Below are positions 1-11,151 of a DNA stretch of 11,190 bases, one piece after another; the first letter of the stretch is position 1, and every line of letters starts with the position of its first letter. Both the position numbers and the translations under genes were made by a program. The stretch is from Candidatus Hydrogenedentota bacterium (GTDB lineage Bacteria > JBFMHD01), in the NCBI GenBank assembly GCA_040752395.1, contig JBFMHD010000037.1, positions 5,404 to 16,593 on the forward strand, written 5' to 3'. The notes under the pieces are model-generated. The model was not told where the DNA came from. It ran no database searches and worked only from the letters and a program-made list of their open reading frames with translations.

Positions 1-78
1 ATTAAAAGATACGGCAAGGAAGTGTATATTTTCGCTTTCTTTACTTTTAACTTTTGACTTTTTACTTTTAACTTGTCA

Positions 79-145
79 TAGGAGTTAGAAGTTAGGAGTT
101 CGTAATAATAGCTCCGAGCTCCGAACTTTTTCGAAGGAGTCAACA
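79..145 (+). promoter_or_regulatory. Repeated leader element: (GGAGTTA)n ... (GCTCCGA)n hairpin, then a T-run and GAAGGAG Shine-Dalgarno. Copy A sits upstream of a 29-aa sORF
   Basis: AGTTCG(97-102) pairs with CGAACT(122-127), with G-U extensions. TTTTT(128-132) and AGGAG(135-139) follow. Near-identical to 1873-1941. Confidence 0.4.
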
Positions 146-235
146 TGAGCGCGTTTGCGCTCTACACTATTGGGTTCTTGGGTTCTTGCGTTATTGCGTT
201 CTACACAAAGGATGAAAAACTAAAGATGATATGAA
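146..235 (+). CDS. Candidate small ORF (29 aa, hydrophobic: MSAFALYTIGFLGSCVIAFYTKDEKLKMI)
   Basis: ATG lies 6 nt after GAAGGAG, the same leader as the downstream genes. The ORF overlaps a GAGCGC-gttt-GCGCTC hairpin and the GGGTTCTT octamer repeats, so it may be fortuitous. Confidence 0.15.
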
Positions 236-455
236 AAGAGTCACAAGTCGCAAGTCGTGAGTCAAAACAGGACTCAGGACTCAAGACTCAAGACTTTTCA
301 GCCGGCTCCGGGCCTCGGGCTCCAGCCGGCTGTAGTCCGTAGCCTGTAGCCTGTAGCCTGTACTGATACCTCTTACTTCTTCCGTTATCTTGCTTCTTGC
401 TTCTTGCTTCTACTTGATATTATTATAGTTACAATGTTTTTCGAAGGAGAGCCCC
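200..455 (+). repeat. Mosaic intergenic repeat cassette, copy 1. It is a chain of heptamer tandem tracts, then a GC-rich core, then the ATTATTAkAGTTACA-GTTTTTC-AGGAG tail
   Basis: Heptamer tracts: (GTCRYRA)x3, (AGGACTC/AAGACTC)x4, the GGCTCCGGGCCTCGGGCTCCAGCCGGCTG core, (TAGCCTG)x4 and (CTTGCTT)x3. Homologous to 6122-6305 and 10787-11027, with different tandem unit counts. Confidence 0.7.
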
Positions 456-462
456 CATAGAT

Positions 463-1863
463 ATGTATATTAATGAATCCCAGATGCAAAAGATTGTTGA
501 GAAAGTTATAGAGCGACTGAAAGATGCAGGTGAAATCATTATTGATGTTAATAGAGGTGATGGAATATTCGAGGATATAGAATCAGCGATTACAGCTGCT
601 AAAAATGCTCAAAAAACTCTGCTTGAATTATCACTTGAGAAAAGAATAGAGATAATCGAAAGTATGCGTAAATTTGCTCGAACACAGGTTCATCGATTCG
701 CAGTAATGGGCGTTGAAGAGACGGGTATGGGTAGAGTAGAAGATAAGATTGCTAAAAATTTGCTTGCTATAAATAAGACACCAGGTGTTGAAGACCTTAT
801 CCCATGGGTCTGTAGCGGCGACCACGGTCTTACCCTTGAAGAAAAAGCACCGTTTGGTGTTATTGGTTCCATTACTCCGTCCACAAATATTACTGAAACT
901 GTTATTGGCAATGCTATCTGTATGATAGCAGCAGGGAACAGCGTGGTGTTTAATCCTCACCCATCTGCTAAAAGAACAGCACAGGCTGCAATGGTGGTAC
1001 TGAATCAGGCTATAATAAAAGCAGCCGGACCAGCTAACCTTATAACCACAGTAAGAGAGCCAACCTTAAAATCAGCTGAGACTATTTTCACGCATCCTGA
1101 AGTTAAACTCGTACTTGTAACTGGCGGACCTGCTGTTGTTGAAGCAGCTATGAAATATCCTAAACGTTGCATCTGTGCAGGACCAGGAAACCCGCCTGTT
1201 GTTGTAGATGAAACAGCTGATATAAAAAAAGCAGCTAAAGATATAATTTTAGGTGCTACGCTGGATAATAATATTCTGTGCATCGCAGAAAAAGAGATAT
1301 TTGTTGTTGAGCCTGTATGTGATGTGCTTAACTCTGAATTAAAACGTGCCGGTGGATATCAATTGTCAGGGTATCAAATGGACCAATTAATGAAACATAT
1401 TGTTGTTAAAGAGGAAGTGGTGAACAGAGAACTTGTTGGCAGGAATGCTAATGTTATAGCTAAATATATAGGGTTAACTATACCTCAAGAAGTGAGACTA
1501 CTTTTTGCCGAGGTCTCAAAGGAGCATCCGCTTATTTATTTAGAACAGCTTATGCCCGTGATACCTGTTGTCAGAATTAAAAACGTAGAAGAAGGTATAG
1601 AACTATCTCTCAAAGCAGAGCACGGATACAAACACACAGCTATTATGCACTCTAAGAATATCGAGCGGTTATCAAGGATGGCACGTATTATGGATGTATC
1701 TATATTTGTTAAGAATGGGCCTTCCTGTGCAGGTCTTGGTTATGGTGGAGAAGGCTACACTACCTTTTCAATCGCAGGTACAACAGGTGAGGGCTTGACT
1801 ACACCAAAAACATTTACCCGACCCAGACGCTGTACACTGGTAGATTATTTTAGAATCGTATAA
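463..1863 (+). CDS. CoA-acylating aldehyde dehydrogenase, PduP/EutE-type BMC core enzyme, with an N-terminal encapsulation-peptide-like amphipathic helix
   Basis: 466 aa. ICAGPGNPP and NNILCIAEKEIFVVE motifs are typical of acylating ALDH. The N-terminus SQMQKIVEKVIERLKD is amphipathic and precedes the catalytic domain. Confidence 0.88.
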   Translation: MYINESQMQKIVEKVIERLKDAGEIIIDVNRGDGIFEDIESAITAAKNAQKTLLELSLEKRIEIIESMRKFARTQVHRFAVMGVEETGMGRVEDKIAKNLLAINKTPGVEDLIPWVCSGDHGLTLEEKAPFGVIGSITPSTNITETVIGNAICMIAAGNSVVFNPHPSAKRTAQAAMVVLNQAIIKAAGPANLITTVREPTLKSAETIFTHPEVKLVLVTGGPAVVEAAMKYPKRCICAGPGNPPVVVDETADIKKAAKDIILGATLDNNILCIAEKEIFVVEPVCDVLNSELKRAGGYQLSGYQMDQLMKHIVVKEEVVNRELVGRNANVIAKYIGLTIPQEVRLLFAEVSKEHPLIYLEQLMPVIPVVRIKNVEEGIELSLKAEHGYKHTAIMHSKNIERLSRMARIMDVSIFVKNGPSCAGLGYGGEGYTTFSIAGTTGEGLTTPKTFTRPRRCTLVDYFRIV

Positions 1864-1872
1864 GATGAAAAA

Positions 1873-1941
1873 GATAGGAGTTAGGAGTTCGTAATAATAG
1901 ATCCGAGCTCCGAACTCCGAACTCCGAAGTTTTTCGCAGGA
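1873..1941 (+). promoter_or_regulatory. Leader element copy B, a terminator-like hairpin immediately upstream of the SD of the pduS-like gene
   Basis: GGAGTTAGGAGTTCG(1877-1891) pairs with CGAACTCCGAACTCC(1911-1925), 15 bp with one mismatch. Then gaag, TTTTT(1930-1934) and GCAGGAG. Confidence 0.45.
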
Positions 1942-3282
1942 GTGATGGAATACTATATGGTAGAGAAAAAAAGAGATTTAATTGATATAATTAAAGAAGC
2001 AGGGGTTGTGGGCGCTGGCGGTGCTGGATTCCCTACACATATTAAATACAGCACAGAGGTTGAATATGTAATAGCAAATGGTGCCGAGTGCGAACCACTT
2101 CTACGTGTCGATCAACAATTAATGGATAAATATGCAAATGAGATAATACAGGCGTTACTTGCTGTAAAAGAAAGAGTAAAAGCAAAAGAAGCTATGGTGG
2201 GATTAAAATCTAAATATAAAGATGCTATTCGCTCCCTTAAAAAAGCTTCAAAAGATAGAGTAAGATTACATCTTCTTGAGAATGTGTATCCTGCCGGCGA
2301 TGAACATATTCTTCTTTATGATATGACAAAAAGAATCGTTCCAGAAGGTGGCATACCATTGCAGGTCGGCGCTGTTGTCTCTAATGTTGCCACACTTCTG
2401 TGGGTATATGAAGCAATGAATGGTAAACCTGTTACTGATAGGTGGCTGACAGTAACAGGTGAGGTTAATAAACCACAGACTATAAAGGTTCCGATTGGTA
2501 CCACAGTCAGAGATGTGCTGGAGTTTTGTGGCAGAGTAAAGATAAAAGATTTTAAAGTTATTGTTGGTGGACCAATAATGGGGGGTCTGGCTGAGAGTAT
2601 AGATCAAGGGATATTAAAGACTACAAGCGCCATTATTGTTTTACCAAAAGACCATTATGCTGTGTCTTACAAATATTTTGATTTAAATCTACATATCAAA
2701 ACGTCTAAAGCAGCGTGTTGTCAGTGTACATTCTGCACCAGTATTTGTCCGCGCAATTTAATAGGTCATTCAATAGAGCCTCATAAAATAATGAGGGGGA
2801 TATCATTTGGTGTTAATACAGCGGTCAAGGATGCTACGTTAGCTTTTTTATGTTGTGAATGCCAGTTGTGTTATTTCGCCTGTCCGATGAATTTAGCACC
2901 AGGAAGAATTAATGCTCTATTAAAACAGGAATTGACAAAAAAAGGCATAAAGAATCCGCATAATTTGAAACATAACAGGGCCCATATAATAAGAGAATAC
3001 AGGCTTCAACCTCTTAAAAGATTGATTGTTAAACTCGGGTTAACAGACTATGATGTTGATGCTCCTATATCTGATGAAACTTTTTTGCCAAAAAGGGTAA
3101 AAATATCATTGAAACAACATTTTGGCAAAAGTGCTGTTTGTGTGGTAAAAGAAGGGGCTAAAATTAAAAGAGGCGATGTTATAGGTGAAGCTGCTGAGGG
3201 TATATCAGCACGGGTTCATAGCTCTATAGATGGAATTGTAAAGAGTACACAGGGTGATGAGGTTATAATAAGTAGTGGATAA
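1942..3282 (+). CDS. PduS/RnfC-family flavoprotein with two [4Fe-4S] ferredoxin motifs
   Basis: AGVVGAGGAGFPTHIKY and NGAECEP motifs (RnfC/Nqo1-like NADH/FMN domain). Two CxxCxxCxxxCP motifs (CCQCTFCTSICP, CCECQLCYFACP). C-terminal barrel-sandwich-like segment. Start is ambiguous: GTG 1942, ATG 1945 or ATG 1957. Confidence 0.85.
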   Translation: MMEYYMVEKKRDLIDIIKEAGVVGAGGAGFPTHIKYSTEVEYVIANGAECEPLLRVDQQLMDKYANEIIQALLAVKERVKAKEAMVGLKSKYKDAIRSLKKASKDRVRLHLLENVYPAGDEHILLYDMTKRIVPEGGIPLQVGAVVSNVATLLWVYEAMNGKPVTDRWLTVTGEVNKPQTIKVPIGTTVRDVLEFCGRVKIKDFKVIVGGPIMGGLAESIDQGILKTTSAIIVLPKDHYAVSYKYFDLNLHIKTSKAACCQCTFCTSICPRNLIGHSIEPHKIMRGISFGVNTAVKDATLAFLCCECQLCYFACPMNLAPGRINALLKQELTKKGIKNPHNLKHNRAHIIREYRLQPLKRLIVKLGLTDYDVDAPISDETFLPKRVKISLKQHFGKSAVCVVKEGAKIKRGDVIGEAAEGISARVHSSIDGIVKSTQGDEVIISSG

Positions 3283-3298
3283 TCCATTGGTTATAGTT

Positions 3299-3326
3299 AG
3301 AAGCAAGAGGCAAGAAGCAAGATAAC
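3299..3326 (+). repeat. AGAAGCAAGAGGCAAGAAGCAAGATAAC tract, an inverted copy of 384-411
   Basis: Reverse complement of 384-411 with one mismatch. Related tracts at 6128-6150 and 10789-10800. Confidence 0.7.
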
Positions 3327-3361
3327 AGAAGAAGTGAGAAGTAAAGACCAAGGAGAGAACA

Positions 3362-3910
3362 ATGGAACAGGCTTTAGGGTTACTCGAGACAACGAGTGTC
3401 GCGTTAGGTGTTCAGGGTTGTGATGCGATGCTGAAATCAGGTAATGTTATATTGTTGGAGTCACGACCCACGTGTCCGGGTAAGCACTTTACATTAATTT
3501 CAGGTGAGGTCGGTGCTGTAAGAACAGCTATCGCAGCTGGTGAATTAGCTGCCTTCCCATCTGTGGTTCAGACAATGATTATCCCGAATGTTCACCCTTG
3601 TGTTATACCTGCGTTTACAGGTTCTAATATAGTAGAAGAGATAGAGGCTTTAGGTGTGATTGAGACCTATTCTTTAGCAGCCTGTGTTGAGATGGCTGAT
3701 GCAGCAGTAAAAGCTGCTGAAATTAAACTTATTGAAGTGCGATTAGGTTCAGGGCTTGCTGGTAAGTCATTTATATATTTAACAGGTACGGTGGGAGCTG
3801 TGAGGTCTGCTGTTTCTGCTTGTTTATCGCTTGAACATCATAAAGGATTGGTTCACTCAAGTATCATTATACCTTCACCGCATCCTGATTTAATCAAAGC
3901 GATTTTATAA
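3362..3910 (+). CDS. Tandem-BMC-domain shell protein (BMC-T), PduT-like, with the conserved Fe-S ligand Cys38
   Basis: Two BMC (PF00936-like) repeats (ALGLLET...GEVGAVRTAI and ALGVIETYSLAA...GTVGAVRSAV). The PTCPGKHF motif aligns with PduT TICPGKF. The Cys38 codon is tgt at 3473-3475. Confidence 0.88.
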   Translation: MEQALGLLETTSVALGVQGCDAMLKSGNVILLESRPTCPGKHFTLISGEVGAVRTAIAAGELAAFPSVVQTMIIPNVHPCVIPAFTGSNIVEEIEALGVIETYSLAACVEMADAAVKAAEIKLIEVRLGSGLAGKSFIYLTGTVGAVRSAVSACLSLEHHKGLVHSSIIIPSPHPDLIKAIL

Positions 3911-3932
3911 GAATGTCAGTCGACATTCTTTT
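3911..3932 (+). terminator. Intrinsic terminator-like hairpin GAATGTC-agtc-GACATTC followed by TTTT
   Basis: 7-bp perfect stem, 4-nt loop, T-run at 3929-3932, immediately after the pduT-like stop codon. Confidence 0.55.
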
Positions 3933-3971
3933 GGATACGGAACGATATCAGCTTTGCAGGATTAAGGAGTT

Positions 3972-4214
3972 ATGGATAAAGAATATATAGCTTCTGTGAT
4001 AACAGAAGTTATAAATGAAGAGATAAAGATAAAAGATAAACTTACATATCCAGCGAAAGAAGTCGTAAGAGTTGATGAGGTTATCGATGAAAGGATTATA
4101 AGAGATTTAATAAAAGGGAAAGCAGATGTTGTGAAAATAAAAAGTAGCGCAAAGATTACACCGCTTGCAATGGATAGAATAAAAGAGTCTAAAATTAAAG
4201 TTGTGAGAACATAA
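3972..4214 (+). CDS. Small (80 aa) BMC-locus protein of unknown function, with SAF/beta-grasp-like resemblance
   Basis: Strong RBS (AAGGAG, 5 nt before the ATG). The segment IIRDLIKGKADVVKI...AKITPLAMDRIKESKIKVV resembles the SAF-domain pattern xDIxKGxxVxKY...IGxAxxDIxxGExV (as in UxaA_N, FlgA, CpaB). This resemblance comes from memory only. Confidence 0.6.
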   Translation: MDKEYIASVITEVINEEIKIKDKLTYPAKEVVRVDEVIDERIIRDLIKGKADVVKIKSSAKITPLAMDRIKESKIKVVRT

Positions 4215-4215
4215 C

Positions 4216-4509
4216 GTGTTTTTTGCAAAAGTGATAGGTAATGTAGTTGCAACAAAAAAAAACGAAAATCTAAAAGGAAGAAGATTACTTCTTGTTCAGC
4301 CTGTAGACGAAAATATGAAACCCAGGGGGGACCCTGTTATTGCACTTGATTGGCTTGGCACAGATGAAGATGAATTAGTTTTTATAGTTCAGGGGAGAGA
4401 AGCTGTATATGAGGAATCTATGAAAGTAATGATACCAGCTGATGCTGGTATATTTGGTATTATTGATTCAGTGGATACAAAAGATAAGAACCTTTATAGA
4501 AAGCATTAG
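4216..4509 (+). CDS. BMC vertex protein (BMC-P), EutN/PduN/CcmL family, copy 1
   Basis: MFFAKVIGNVVATKK... is the classic EutN N-terminus. 97 aa. GTG start directly follows the upstream TAA stop. Confidence 0.85.
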   Translation: MFFAKVIGNVVATKKNENLKGRRLLLVQPVDENMKPRGDPVIALDWLGTDEDELVFIVQGREAVYEESMKVMIPADAGIFGIIDSVDTKDKNLYRKH

Positions 4510-4522
4510 GCTCGGGGGATGT

Positions 4523-4798
4523 ATGATCCTTTGTAAAGTTGTTGGTGTGGTTGTATCAACACAAAAAAATAAAAAGTTCGAGGGTGTTAAAATTTTTGTT
4601 GTACAGCCGATTAATCCCTCAGGCGAACCTATAGGAAATACTTTAATCTCTGCAGAATATGAGAATGATGCAGGCATCGGAGATACTGTATTAGTATTTA
4701 CTAAAGGGAATGCATCAAGATTAGTTGTAAGGGACCTTTCTTCACCAGTAGATTATGCTATCTGTGGTATTGTTGACAGAATAGAGATGAGTCATTAG
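4523..4798 (+). CDS. BMC vertex protein (BMC-P), EutN/PduN family, copy 2
   Basis: MILCKVVGVVVSTQKN... 91 aa. GGGGGA RBS 5 nt upstream. The 4442 start given in the ORF track is an upstream read-through extension. Confidence 0.85.
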   Translation: MILCKVVGVVVSTQKNKKFEGVKIFVVQPINPSGEPIGNTLISAEYENDAGIGDTVLVFTKGNASRLVVRDLSSPVDYAICGIVDRIEMSH

Positions 4799-4802
4799 TG
4801 GT

Positions 4803-5720
4803 TTACCATCTTTTGCGTTTCCAGAAAAGCATAAACCATACCATCGCAAGCAGAGCTATTAACATTATAATCCAGAAAGAAGAAAGACGCTCTTGAGAAA
4901 TAGGTAGCGGTACATTCATTGAGAAGATACTAACAACAAGTGTGGGAACCATAATTGAGATGGTAATAATATTCAAGGTTTTCATCAAAATATTAAGATT
5001 ATTATTTACGATTGAGGCACGGGCATCCATTAATCCTGCTAAAATATTTGAATATATTTCAGCTTGTTTATAACATTGAGAGTTTTCAATTGCTATATCA
5101 TCAAGTAGTTCAAGATTTTCCTGCGTGAGAACAATTTTGGTTGCATTATGTCTTATTTTTTCAATCAGCATAGAATTGGAATTAATAGAATTTAGATAAT
5201 AAACAAGACTCTTTTCAAGAGTGAATAAATTAAGGAGGTATTTATTTTCCATAGCATGAATTAATTTTTTTTCAAGTGAATCTGATACCATATTTATGAC
5301 CTTTAAATGTTCAAGATAATGATGGATTGAGCGATAGATAAGTCTGAGTAATAAATCCTGTAAAGACGTTATACGATTAAAGAGTTTTCCATCAAATAAT
5401 AAAGTGTTATCGGGTAAAATAACGATTAAATGTTCTTTAAAAAGAAAGAGTCCGACAGAATAGACCTTGAATAAAAATTTATCACTTGATGAATAGTTTT
5501 TAGGTTTTTTATAGATTATAGCGATATGCTCAGGCTCGAACTCCAATCGTGATAGCTCATCAGGGTCCAGAGCGGAATTAAGAGTGTGTTCATCGAGCTC
5601 GAATTCATCTAATAGATATTTTCTTTCAGCTTCATCAGGATTGACAAAGACTAAAATTTTAGCATCACCATCCGGGGCTTCTACGATTTTATCACCGAGT
5701 ATAAGATACTTTCTTAACAT
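4803..5720 (-). CDS. CorA-family divalent-cation transporter with an SMN motif in place of the canonical GMN
   Basis: 305 aa. C-terminal TM1-loop-TM2-KRKRW topology. The loop reads VVSIFSMNVPLP; the codon TCA=Ser was confirmed on the reverse strand at 4920-4946. Confidence 0.82.
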   Translation of the reverse strand: MLRKYLILGDKIVEAPDGDAKILVFVNPDEAERKYLLDEFELDEHTLNSALDPDELSRLEFEPEHIAIIYKKPKNYSSSDKFLFKVYSVGLFLFKEHLIVILPDNTLLFDGKLFNRITSLQDLLLRLIYRSIHHYLEHLKVINMVSDSLEKKLIHAMENKYLLNLFTLEKSLVYYLNSINSNSMLIEKIRHNATKIVLTQENLELLDDIAIENSQCYKQAEIYSNILAGLMDARASIVNNNLNILMKTLNIITISIMVPTLVVSIFSMNVPLPISQERLSSFWIIMLIALLAMVWFMLFWKRKRW

Positions 5721-5753: not shown

Positions 5754-6050
5754 TCACATTCTACGTTTAACAAGATGCGGTACCTCACGTTTTAGTATGC
5801 CGTTTAAAATACCATAAAGAGCTCTCTCGATATTTGGACGGTCAGTATTTGGAGGCAACGTAAGATCAAGTTTAATACGCGCTGAATCAATCAACATATT
5901 GTGAACCTTAATACCCATAATAATTATGTTTCTTTCTAACTGTTTTCTAATCCGATGTTTTAATCCCTCTGAGAGCCGTGAACGGCTCGCACGATCAGGC
6001 ATACTAAATGAAAGCTTAAGCTCAATGTTAACCCTTCGAATTACTTGCAT
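5754..6050 (-). CDS. Small hypothetical protein with a weak RbfA-like (ribosome-binding factor A) pattern
   Basis: 98 aa. Immediately upstream and co-oriented with the CorA gene. The patterns MPDRASRSRLSEGLKHRIRKQLE and ERALYGILNGILKREVPHL loosely match the RbfA N- and C-terminal motifs. An internal ATG at 6002 is an alternative start. Confidence 0.4.
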   Translation of the reverse strand: MQVIRRVNIELKLSFSMPDRASRSRLSEGLKHRIRKQLERNIIIMGIKVHNMLIDSARIKLDLTLPPNTDRPNIERALYGILNGILKREVPHLVKRRM

Positions 6051-6121
6051 AAATAATATCTTAACATATATGAAAATATTGTCTATAATTTATTTGACAT
6101 AATTCCCTCGCTTATAGGTTG

Positions 6122-6305
6122 TAAGAAGTAAGAAGCAAGAGGCAAGAAGTAGATAATATGTTGGCTCCGGGCTTGGGGTTCCAGACTCCAGCCGGCTGTA
6201 GTCCGTAGCCTGAAGCCTGTAGCCCGAAGAGATGTTTTTTTAATTTTTCATAGTAGGAGGTTATCAGTAAACAGAAAACCGAAAACCAAACACCGAACTT
6301 AAGAA
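6122..6305 (+). repeat. Mosaic intergenic repeat cassette, copy 2 (partial)
   Basis: It contains AGAAGCAAGAGGCAAGAAG, the GGCTCCGGGCTTGGGG...CAGCCGGCTGTAGTCCGTAGCC core, a T-run plus AGGAGG, (AAACCGA)n and ACACCGAACTTAAGAA (6290-6305). The last box matches 11012-11027. Confidence 0.65.
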
Positions 6306-6332: not shown

Positions 6333-6367
6333 TTGACTTTGTAAAAAAATTAGTTATTATATAATCA
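6333..6367 (+). promoter_or_regulatory. Putative sigma70-like promoter for smpB (TTGACT ... TTATATAAT), which may give a leaderless mRNA
   Basis: TTGACT at 6333-6338. A TATATAAT-like -10 ends about 4 nt before the smpB ATG. No SD is present. Confidence 0.35.
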
Positions 6368-6811
6368 ATGAAAGTTATAACAGTTAATAAGAAAGCTGGG
6401 TTTAATTATCAAATATTTGAAAGGTTTGAAGCTGGTATAGTTCTTAAAGGTAGTGAGGTAAAATCAATAAGAGAAGGTAATATAAATTTAAAAGATGGTT
6501 ATTGTATAATGAAGGCAGATGAATTATATCTTATAAATGTGCATATATCAAGGTATAAGCCATCAGGAGTATTGAATCATGAACCTGAACGGGCACGAAA
6601 AATGCTCCTTCATAAAAGAGAATTAAAAAGATTGACAGGAAAGATCAATGAGAGAGGGTTAAGTATTATACCATTAAAGGTTTATATAAATCAAAAAGGC
6701 AGAATCAAAGTTGAGATAGGTTTAGCTAAGGGGAAAAGTAAGATTGATAAACGTGAGGATTTAAGAAAAAGAGCTATTGATAGAGAGATTGAGAGAGAGT
6801 TAAAGTATTGA
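6368..6811 (+). CDS. smpB: SsrA-binding protein SmpB
   Basis: 147 aa. KKAGFNYQIFERFEAGIVLKGSEVKSIREGNINLKDGY matches the SmpB signature. A basic C-terminal tail is present. The tmRNA gene follows on the same strand. Confidence 0.95.
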   Translation: MKVITVNKKAGFNYQIFERFEAGIVLKGSEVKSIREGNINLKDGYCIMKADELYLINVHISRYKPSGVLNHEPERARKMLLHKRELKRLTGKINERGLSIIPLKVYINQKGRIKVEIGLAKGKSKIDKREDLRKRAIDREIERELKY

Positions 6812-6850
6812 CGAATCTAAAGTATTATAGTAATATATAAAATTATAGGA

Positions 6851-6969
6851 GACAGAAGACAGAAGTTAAAAAGATACAAAGATTGAAAGATTCAAATGCA
6901 TTTTAACTTTTAATAGGAGGGTAAATAAATTTGCAATTTGCAATTTACAATGGAGCAAAGCGACAAGAA
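6851..6969 (+). repeat. Phase-coherent chain of heptamer tandem tracts upstream of the tmRNA
   Basis: (GACAGAA)x2, AAGATTG/AAAGATT, ATTTTAA/CTTTTAA, (AATTTGC)x3 and a GGAGCAAAGCGACA box (6952-6965). Confidence 0.6.
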
Positions 6970-6971
6970 AG

Positions 6972-7370
<399 letters not shown>

Positions 7371-7472
7371 GCTGACCTTATGGGAGGAAGAGTTCACAAG
7401 GATGTGAATAGAAGAAAATCACCGTGCCTGGAGCGAAGCGACAGCCGGAGTCGAACGAGAGTGAGCTAAAAG

Positions 7473-8177: not shown

Positions 8178-8185
8178 TTTTTATT

Positions 8186-8420
8186 CAAGGGTTGAGGCAC
8201 TGCCAGAGAAGAATCTTATCTGCGGAATTTTTGCAATTCGTACAGAATTTTTGCTTTCGAGTCTGGCGTCTGAAGCATACGAATGGAGAATGGGTTGAGG
8301 CACTGCCTCATCCGTCTCTTTGCCAACAAAATTTCGCTTTTTGCATAGAGAATTCGCTTTTGCTGTATGGCATAGCAGATACCGAATGGTAGAATGGGTT
8401 GAGGCACTGCCTCATAATAC
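8186..8420. repeat. Three diverged ~104-bp tandem units, each carrying the palindrome TGAGGCA-c-TGCCTCA
   Basis: Palindromes at 8193-8207 (imperfect, right arm TGCCAGA), 8296-8310 and 8400-8414 (both perfect). Spacing is 103 and 104 bp. The units also share CGAATGG(T)AGAATGGG and GAATTTTTGC-like subrepeats. The period is not divisible by 3. Confidence 0.75.
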
Positions 8421-10784: not shown

Positions 10785-10786
10785 CT

Positions 10787-11027
10787 TAGAAGCAAGAGGC
10801 ACAAAGGCACAGAGGCACAAAGTATGAAAAGAGTCGTGAGTCAAAACAGGACTCGAGACTCAAGACTCAAGACTTTTTAGCAGGCTCCGGGCTTCGGGCT
10901 CCAGCCGGCTGTAGTCCGTAGCCCGTAGCCTGTACCCCGAATTATTAGAGTTACAGCGTTTTTCAGAGGAGCGAAGCGACAATTAGGTTATCGGTGAACT
11001 GACCACCTAACACCGAACTTAAGAAAC
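10787..11027 (+). repeat. Mosaic intergenic repeat cassette, copy 3
   Basis: AGAAGCAAGAGGCAC, (GAGGCAC/AAGGCAC)x3, ATGAAAAGAGTC...(GACTCAA)n...GGCTCCGGGCTTCGGGCTCCAGCCGGCTGTAGTCCGTAGCC, ATTATTAGAGTTACAGCGTTTTTCAGAGGAG, GGAGCGAAGCGACA and ACACCGAACTTAAGAA. Collinear with copy 1 but with fewer tandem units. Confidence 0.7.
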
Positions 11028-11151
11028 TCTATCGATAAAATAGACATAAAATTGACGGTAATATATTAAAATATTGACAAATATAATTTTTTTTAAAAGA
11101 TTTTTAATGAAAAAATACTTTAAAATAAAGAAATTATATTTTAAAAAAAGA

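Follow-up and report, generated by a model that had tools for sequence, protein, structure and literature searches.

We analyzed an 11-kb window of DNA (11,190 nt, G+C = 36%) annotated as part of a Candidatus Hydrogenedentota metagenome-assembled genome, in which a hairpin followed by a T-run and a GGAG tail lies between two genes of a microcompartment operon, one for an aldehyde dehydrogenase (ALDH) and the other for a PduS-like protein (pduS-like gene). With moderate confidence, we favor the reading that this element is a copy of a lineage-specific intergenic palindromic repeat family, which, within the mRNA of the operon, probably forms a structure that slows decay or weakly attenuates transcription. 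A previous sequence-only reading had pointed out the element and described it as an intrinsic terminator or attenuator, or as a portable expression module that ends in a consensus Shine-Dalgarno (SD) sequence; the observation was confirmed to be real and beyond chance, and the interpretation was partly supported. The analyzed sequence is this window alone, and all positions are counted from its first nucleotide.

Hairpin copies built from heptamer arrays

The 15-bp hairpin with one mismatch that had been noticed before the pduS-like gene was confirmed (copy A2, Table 1). Its left arm GGAGTTAGGAGTTCG (1877–1891) and right arm CGAGCTCCGAACTCC (1904–1918) enclose a loop of 12 nt (TAATAATAGATC, 1892–1903), and of the 15 positions of the stem, one is an A·G mismatch (A1883·G1912) and another a G·U pair. 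For the core (1877–1935), a folding energy of −22.6 kcal/mol was predicted (z = −4.1), which none of 200 shuffled versions reached. A run of five T residues (T5) is present after the hairpin as had been described, but it does not directly adjoin the stem, from which it is separated by 11 nt (GAACTCCGAAG) composed of further CTCCGAA heptamers; moreover, instead of an SD sequence ~10 nt after the hairpin, GGAG is found 3–4 nt after the T-run. Because the right arm is a tandem array, registers 7 nt apart are possible: the stem can slip by 7 nt, and such an alternative register, in which the distance from stem to T-run is 4 nt and the loop is 19 nt, was seen in the fold of 1864–1936.

Recurrence of the same module before a small open reading frame (ORF) of 29 aa also held. 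In this copy, A1, T5 (127–131) is followed by GGAG (136–139) and ATG (145), and a 45-nt core is 93% identical between the two copies (83–127 in A1, 1872–1916 in A2). The A1 core gave −16.8 kcal/mol (z = −4.1), and the two-sequence consensus fold of A1 and A2 kept 14 pairs with one two-sided change (A-U to G-C) and one one-sided change. When the window was searched with a covariance model built from the two full copies (R1), only A1, A2 and their own palindromic reverse strands were matched. The arms of hairpin A are heptamer arrays, as called with Tandem Repeats Finder, of TAGGAGT (2.1–3.1 copies) on the left and TCCGAAC on the right, and the number of units differs between the copies: three left and two right in A1, two left and four right in A2. 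The U-run is itself base-paired in the best folds, its partner being a purine run further upstream (AGAA in A1, GAAAAA in A2), and the T-run is therefore the outermost segment of a longer palindrome. AGGAGT stands at either end of both copies; since this hexamer is also the arm unit, a duplication is indistinguishable from the array structure, and terminal inverted repeats accompanied by an unambiguous target-site duplication were not identified around the hairpin copies. The loop of both copies (1892–1900 and 103–111) reads TAATAATAG, which is three consecutive stop codons in one frame, not the ALDH frame.

Seven-nucleotide periodicity was not confined to hairpin A. The lag-7 self-identity of intergenic DNA (2061 nt in total) was 0.404, compared to 0.272 ± 0.010 for shuffled sequence (z = 13.1), and lags 14 and 21 showed harmonics, whereas coding DNA gave 0.274, that is, no signal. 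The lag-7 signal was found in six of the nine larger spacers, and 20 arrays of period 7 or 8 cover ~495 nt, about a quarter of the intergenic total. Sister hairpin modules, B and C, recur as blocks with 81–93% identity at 236–364, 6160–6232 and 10826–10945; their helical segments of ~4–8 bp are broken by 1×1 mismatches or small internal loops, and the stem interruptions of hairpin C3 are ~7 nt apart. A general purine·purine rule for the periodic stem mismatches was rejected: it applies to the A and B hairpins, while mismatches of the C·U kind are found in hairpin C. Repeat modules were located upstream of the operon (1–462), between its cistrons (1864–1956 and 3283–3361), between two divergent promoter-like sites (6119–6305), between smpB and the tmRNA gene (6812–6971) and after lptB (10785–11030), and a 46-nt AGAAGCA module is present in both orientations. 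Together with heptamer arrays that fill most spacers, the occurrence of one module in both orientations and of a block between promoter-like sites points to a family of dispersed repeats more than to a device made for expression.

With regard to the 46-nt module, the copy upstream of ALDH (365–413) is the reverse complement (91%) of 3296–3345, which lies where the pduS-like and BMC-domain genes adjoin. If both are on one transcript, they are predicted to form an RNA duplex of −70.7 kcal/mol (shuffled, −26 ± 4 kcal/mol); such a duplex, with ALDH, the hairpin and the pduS-like gene lying between its two strands, could be cut by RNase III or serve for looping.

The tail was searched for as the 14-mer GTTTTTCGAAGGAG with two or fewer mismatches. 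Four matches were obtained, all on the + strand (126–139, 436–449, 1929–1942 and 10958–10971), compared to 0.07 expected, and none of 200 shuffles reached four. Truncated tails had been claimed before ALDH and at the end of what had been called copy 3, and both were found again at slightly corrected coordinates (the second and fourth matches). The tail is thus carried by two types of module, hairpin A (twice) and the B–C composite (436–449 and 10958–10971), and related junctions consisting of a T-run, a few bases and AGGAG were present at 66–84, 6238–6256 and 6901–6919. Because the end of the tail in both full copies, AGGAGT, agrees in 6 of 7 bases with the left-arm unit TAGGAGT, the ‘SD’ of the tail may most simply be read as one more repeat unit. 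A palindromic core of the tail, TTCGAA, was considered as a protein-binding dyad and dropped, being broken in two of the four tails.

Rfam, searched at E ≤ 1, gave the tmRNA only, with no family for the hairpin element. In sequence collections that do not contain the DNA of this genome, a metagenome scan with a 23-mer conserved in all three C modules gave no match, one with the hairpin–tail junction gave a single match attributable to chance, lacking hairpin and heptamers, two 17-mer matches in viral contigs were both chance matches, and blastn against plasmids gave none. No exact-protein match to ALDH, the pduS-like protein or SmpB was on record, the proteins being present in NCBI as single entries of this metagenome-assembled genome on a contig of 16,593 nt, and a scan of species-representative genomes yielded only Clostridia-like loci of 35–36% identity. 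The nearest protein homologues are 51% (pduS-like) and 58% (LptB) identical, leaving no close relative to compare. In the nearest homologous locus (L004), whose pduS-like protein is the one of 51% identity, the order of the ALDH, pduS-like and BMC-domain genes is the same as here, but its ALDH/pduS spacer of 84 nt contains an unrelated small hairpin, no heptamer arrays and no T-run, and has a lag-7 identity of 0.27 (no signal). Because this spacer has no repeats despite the conserved gene order, the hairpin element is, as far as these two loci can be compared, a property of this genome and not a conserved feature of the operon type.

Based on these results, we propose the following scheme. The arms of the repeat are complementary 7-nt arrays, GGAGTTA-type on the left and CTCCGAA-type on the right; the family would spread by duplication, and the arms would lengthen and shorten by replication slippage, which would explain how a 93%-identical core can carry 3 + 2 units in one copy and 2 + 4 in the other. 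The T-run and GGAG would then belong to the repeat, and would not have evolved at the pduS-like site. With the stop codon of ALDH 13 nt away on one side and the start of the pduS-like gene 14 nt away on the other, copy A2 is most likely transcribed in the microcompartment operon mRNA. In the mRNA, its stem-loop of about −23 to −26 kcal/mol would act in the manner of REP/BIME/ERIC-type elements, as a barrier to 3′-exonucleases and at most as a weak, leaky attenuator, and would uncouple the level of ALDH mRNA from that of the downstream genes.

The same repeats could instead be functionless filler, a neutral or selfish by-product of slippage and duplication in a genome inclined to heptamer repeats, with no measurable effect on ALDH or pduS-like expression, which we regard as unlikely. 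This explanation agrees with spacers being filled regardless of context, including the one between divergent promoter-like sites, with one module lying in either orientation, with unit numbers differing freely between copies, and with the nearest homologous locus keeping the gene order and a similar spacer length without repeats. On the other hand, a stem-loop of this stability between a close stop and start is unlikely to be inert if transcribed, the sense strand folds better in all seven hairpins, and the pairing of the stem survives one two-sided change between copies.

Several points weigh against a dispersed repeat family that acts in the operon mRNA. Only 11 kb of the genome was covered, and copy number and orientation bias were seen in the window alone. 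All four tails are oriented like the genes downstream, and in two cases a real start follows at nearly the same distance (13 and 14 nt), a pattern with which a selected leader would agree as well. The lower energy of the + strand in 7 of 7 hairpins, although slight, hints at selection at the RNA level; however, this is not confirmed by G·U counts, which are not consistently higher on that strand. No transposase or other mobilizing gene was found in the window, A1 comes close to a terminator (see below), and we infer the decay-barrier or attenuator effect by analogy.

Tests of possible termination and ribosome binding at the hairpin

The hairpins were scored as intrinsic terminators by a d'Aubenton-Carafa-type function, in which hairpin energy per nucleotide and a weighted U-tail are combined (threshold, d = 0). 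For A2, d was −42 in the original register and −40 in the +7 register, very low values that reflect the gap of 11 or 4 nt between stem and U-run, whereas A1, whose U-run is directly at the stem base, was borderline (d = −1.9). A U-tract within 0–2 nt of the stem base was thus found only in A1, the loop of A2 (12 nt, or 19 nt in the alternative register) is longer than a short loop of ~3–8 nt, and a consensus terminator scan listed neither copy. The terminator reading of the A2 element was therefore not upheld. A dedicated intrinsic terminator or attenuator that sets the stoichiometry of the microcompartment operon between ALDH and the pduS-like gene is in our estimate quite improbable, even though a stable GC-containing stem stands near T5, the score of A1 is borderline, and hairpin B is also followed by T4–T5, with one B copy after lptB, where a terminator is expected. 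Apart from the scores and loop lengths, it is disfavored by the pairing of the U-run with the upstream purine run in the best folds, and also by the arrangement upstream of ALDH: the three hairpins in series (A1, B1 and C1; 78–364), if they were efficient terminators, would silence the operon unless a promoter followed them, and no promoter-like site was detected between them and ALDH.

A compact, non-repeated hairpin, GAATGTCAGTCGACATTC, followed by TTTT is located at 3911–3932 and begins 1 nt past the stop of the gene for the BMC-domain shell protein; with d = −3.4 it is closer to a conventional terminator or attenuator than A2. An antiterminator site of the ANTAR (EutV) type, as in microcompartment loci, consists of two small hairpins with hexanucleotide loops overlapping a terminator. 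This possibility was rejected for the element, which is a single hairpin with a 12-nt loop and no Rfam match.

The element had also been described as a hairpin fused to a consensus SD leader. The spacing from GGAG to the start codon is 5 nt for the 29-aa ORF, 13 nt for ALDH and 14 nt for the pduS-like gene (ATG 1957; 2 nt if counted to ATG 1945), and the fourth tail has no ORF after it, so that a near-optimal distance (~5–9 nt) is not conserved in every copy. In addition, the tail GGAG was predicted to be mostly paired in the three leaders (P(unpaired) = 0.25, 0.03 and 0.015). The in-frame start candidates of the pduS-like gene are GTG 1942, ATG 1945 and ATG 1957, of which the last is the NCBI start and best fits the N-termini of the nine homologues aligned for this purpose. 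The consensus leader was thus not borne out. What stands of the portable expression module is a modular sequence that recurs as two full copies and two tails, oriented in each case like the downstream genes, and that forms a stable stem-loop beside a T-run and a GGAG. A fixed portable ribosome-binding cassette is not supported; the GGAG may be used opportunistically as a distant SD.

We give a low probability to a portable module of 5′-stabilizing hairpin, U-rich enhancer and consensus SD that was placed by selection to boost translation. U-rich tracts upstream of an SD can enhance translation via ribosomal protein S1, each of the four tails is on the coding strand and either precedes a gene or points towards one, and two of them lie 13–14 nt before the ALDH and pduS-like starts. 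However, this distance exceeds the usual SD optimum, one tail is not followed by any ORF, the best spacing belongs to the doubtful 29-aa ORF, made up in part of octamer repeats, the tail GGAG is predicted to be mostly paired, and many genes of the window have no SD at all, two of them being apparently leaderless.

The heptamer arrays could also serve as a riboregulator or protein-binding site, in which GGAG and CUCC would mimic SD and anti-SD and the unit number would tune access to the pduS-like ribosome-binding site; the chance of this appears very small. In silico, the probability that GGAG 1939–1942 is unpaired was ~0.55 with fewer CUCCGAA units, 0.25 in the native sequence and 0.002 with at least one extra unit, and unit numbers of the arms do differ between copies. 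Regulatory roles have been proposed for heptamer arrays near start codons in Beggiatoaceae and Nostoc (PMC4679880; bioRxiv 10.1101/2022.06.06.494920), but those proposals are themselves speculation, and no candidate binding protein was identified here. The evidence is computational only, the accessibility estimates are noisy and other leaders of the window are also low, and the GGAG, 14 nt from the likely start, may not be an SD. A more specific form of the idea, to which we likewise attach a slim probability, is a slippage-tunable riboregulator in which the surplus CUCC units after the stem would decide access to GGAG and the ribosome-binding site, and a change of one unit would reset the expression of microcompartment genes. 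If true, such slippage-tuned logic could extend to many operons of the lineage, as a contingency-locus mechanism acting on metabolic operons.

Genes and further repeats of the window

Features of the window are summarized in Table 1. Pfam families were matched by 12 of the 14 protein-coding genes, all unrelated to RAYT (REP-associated, IS200-like tyrosine transposase), and the 80-aa and 98-aa genes had no family match; no RAYT gene was found among the window proteins. The ALDH stop codon is TAA at 1861–1863, and the nearest ALDH homologue locus has exactly the same C-terminus (...TLVDYFRIV*), showing that the A2 hairpin is truly intergenic. The 29-aa ORF behind copy A1 is probably not a gene, because it runs through the octamer array at 170–202 and matches no protein family (neither Pfam nor NCBIfam).

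Table 1. Positions of hairpin repeats, tails and genes in the 11-kb window
Feature	Position	Strand	Description
Copy A1 of hairpin repeat	78–140	+	left array 79–100 (3 units), stem 87–102/115–130; R1 89 bits
29-aa ORF after copy A1	145–234	+	contains octamer array TTGCGTTC ×4 at 170–202
Sister hairpin modules B1 and C1	236–364	+	B1 arms AGTCGCA/GACTCAA, then TTTT; C1 arms GGCTCCG/GTAGCCT; heptamer-array architecture as in hairpin A
Tail-only copy GTTTTTCGAAGGAG	436–449	+	13 nt before ALDH start ATG 463; ends composite repeat copy 1
Acylating-type aldehyde dehydrogenase (ALDH)	463–1863	+	protein family match
Copy A2 of hairpin repeat	1873–1943	+	between ALDH and pduS-like gene; from ATAGGAGT to closing AGGAGT; R1 107 bits
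A2 stem-loop	1877–1918	+	left arm of (GGAGTTA)2-type units
A2 right-arm heptamer array	1902–1928	+	TCCGAAC ×3.9 (Tandem Repeats Finder); two units more than copy A1
A2 tail GTTTTTCGCAGGAG	1929–1942	+	T5 1930–1934, then CGCA, then GGAG 1939–1942
RnfC/PduS-like flavin iron-sulfur protein	1957–3282	+	Pfam match; MEW5692361.1
Tandem-BMC-domain shell protein	3362–3910	+	MEW5692362.1
80-aa ORF and two EutN/CcmL-family pentamer genes			3′ of BMC-domain shell gene
98-aa gene and CorA		−	opposite strand
Repeat block	6119–6305	+	AGAAGCA array, hairpin C2, T-run/GGAG junction, AAACCGA array; between two divergent promoter-like sites
SmpB	6368–6811	+	MEW5692368.1
tmRNA gene	6972–7333		Rfam match
Amidase_3 gene, Germane-domain gene, lptC, lptA, lptB			beyond tmRNA gene
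Sister hairpin modules B3 and C3	10826–10945	+	downstream of lptB
Tail-only copy GTTTTTCAGAGGAG	10958–10971	+	ends composite repeat copy 3, fused to GGAGCGAAGCGACA; no ORF after

The microcompartment set in 1–4800 comprises ALDH, the pduS-like gene, the tandem-BMC-domain shell gene and the two pentamer genes, with no single-domain hexamer shell gene and no signature enzyme, both of which are presumably encoded upstream of the window. In locus L004, the shell gene is followed by RpiB and DeoC genes. The convergent eutN2 (+) and corA (−) genes end 4 nt apart (4798–4803), leaving no space for a terminator between them. A −35/−10-like pair precedes both SmpB (+ strand; region 6333–6368) and the 98-aa gene (− strand; region 6050–6085). 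In either case exactly 7 nt separate the end of the −10 box from the ATG, so that the mRNAs may be leaderless; this would place the repeat block at 6119–6305 in a probably untranscribed gap.

Two further repeats of other kinds were observed. The sequence GGAGCGAAGCGACA occurs three times on the + strand, at 6952–6965 (reading GGAGCAAAGCGACA, with one mismatch), 7430–7443 and 10968–10981. The first copy ends 6 nt short of the 5′ end of the tmRNA, the second is 96 nt beyond the 3′ end, and the third is fused to the tail of composite copy 3, where it resembles an insertion of ~15 nt relative to composite copy 2. Both exact copies contain GCGAAGC, a very stable mini-hairpin, and GGAGCGAAGCGACA is possibly a dispersed repeat of very small size. 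Three direct repeats, 103–104 nt apart, were found at 8184–8415 before the Germane-domain gene, each with a hairpin-forming core GGGTTGAGGCACTGCCTCA; they had no Rfam match, and this spacer lacks heptamer periodicity.

Relation to known intergenic repeats

Stem-loops of REP and BIME elements stabilize upstream mRNA and can weakly attenuate transcription, and ERIC/IRU of enterobacteria, Correia elements of Neisseria and BOX/RUP of pneumococci form hairpins in mRNA that alter how stable the neighboring cistrons are or how they are processed. The latter group is like the present repeats in being modular and placed between cistrons, but there is no sequence similarity, and no clear target-site duplication was identified here. 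REP/BIME/REPIN elements of Proteobacteria are likewise extragenic imperfect palindromes in mosaic clusters, with complementary arms that can fold in ssDNA or mRNA. They are dispersed in tens to hundreds of copies per genome, and two copies of hairpin A were counted in the 11 kb covered here; unlike them, the present repeats have arms that are internally repetitive heptamers and no sequence similarity, and are accompanied by no RAYT gene in the window. Such hairpin-forming extragenic repeat doublets (REP/REPIN) form mosaic clusters in and between operons (PMC3116915). Intrinsic terminators share a stem-loop near a T-run, to which A1 comes close, but the T-run of A2 is detached, the loop is 12–19 nt, and the element is repeated and stands immediately before start codons.

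Published heptamer arrays that are concentrated in intergenic DNA include STRR (short tandemly repeated repetitive) arrays in heterocystous cyanobacteria, arrays of TAACTGA in Beggiatoaceae from marine habitats, and arrays of GGGAATC in both Xanthomonas and Nostoc (PMC4679880, PMC4692102). What they do is speculative in the published cases (also bioRxiv 10.1101/2022.06.06.494920), and polymerase slippage has been proposed as the origin of heptamer repeats generally (PMC4679880, PMC4692102, both citing Mrázek et al. 2007). The window contains what defines heptamer simple sequence repeats, namely head-to-tail 7-nt arrays with an excess in intergenic over coding DNA, and further shares with STRR and other heptamer arrays the 7-nt units in 2–5 copies, several families per genome, an intergenic position often near start or stop, and variable length. 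What differs is that complementary arrays here pair into hairpins and are assembled into mosaic modules recurring with 88–93% identity, that the unit sequences are unrelated, and that the host is Candidatus Hydrogenedentota, neither a cyanobacterium nor a proteobacterium. Full-text literature searches gave no report of this combination of complementary heptamer arrays as hairpin arms, several families in recurring modules and a host lineage new for the phenomenon.

For annotation, this means that the A2 hairpin should not be labelled a terminator, nor the 29-aa ORF a gene. The repeats also provide an independent case for two open questions, whether slippage alone is the origin of heptamer repeats and whether such repeats are used at the RNA level. 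In this barely sampled lineage, most spacers of the window are built from several families of 7-nt arrays that pair into hairpins, and if the arrays do work at the mRNA level, the balance in expression between the enzymes and the shell proteins of the microcompartment would be shaped by them.

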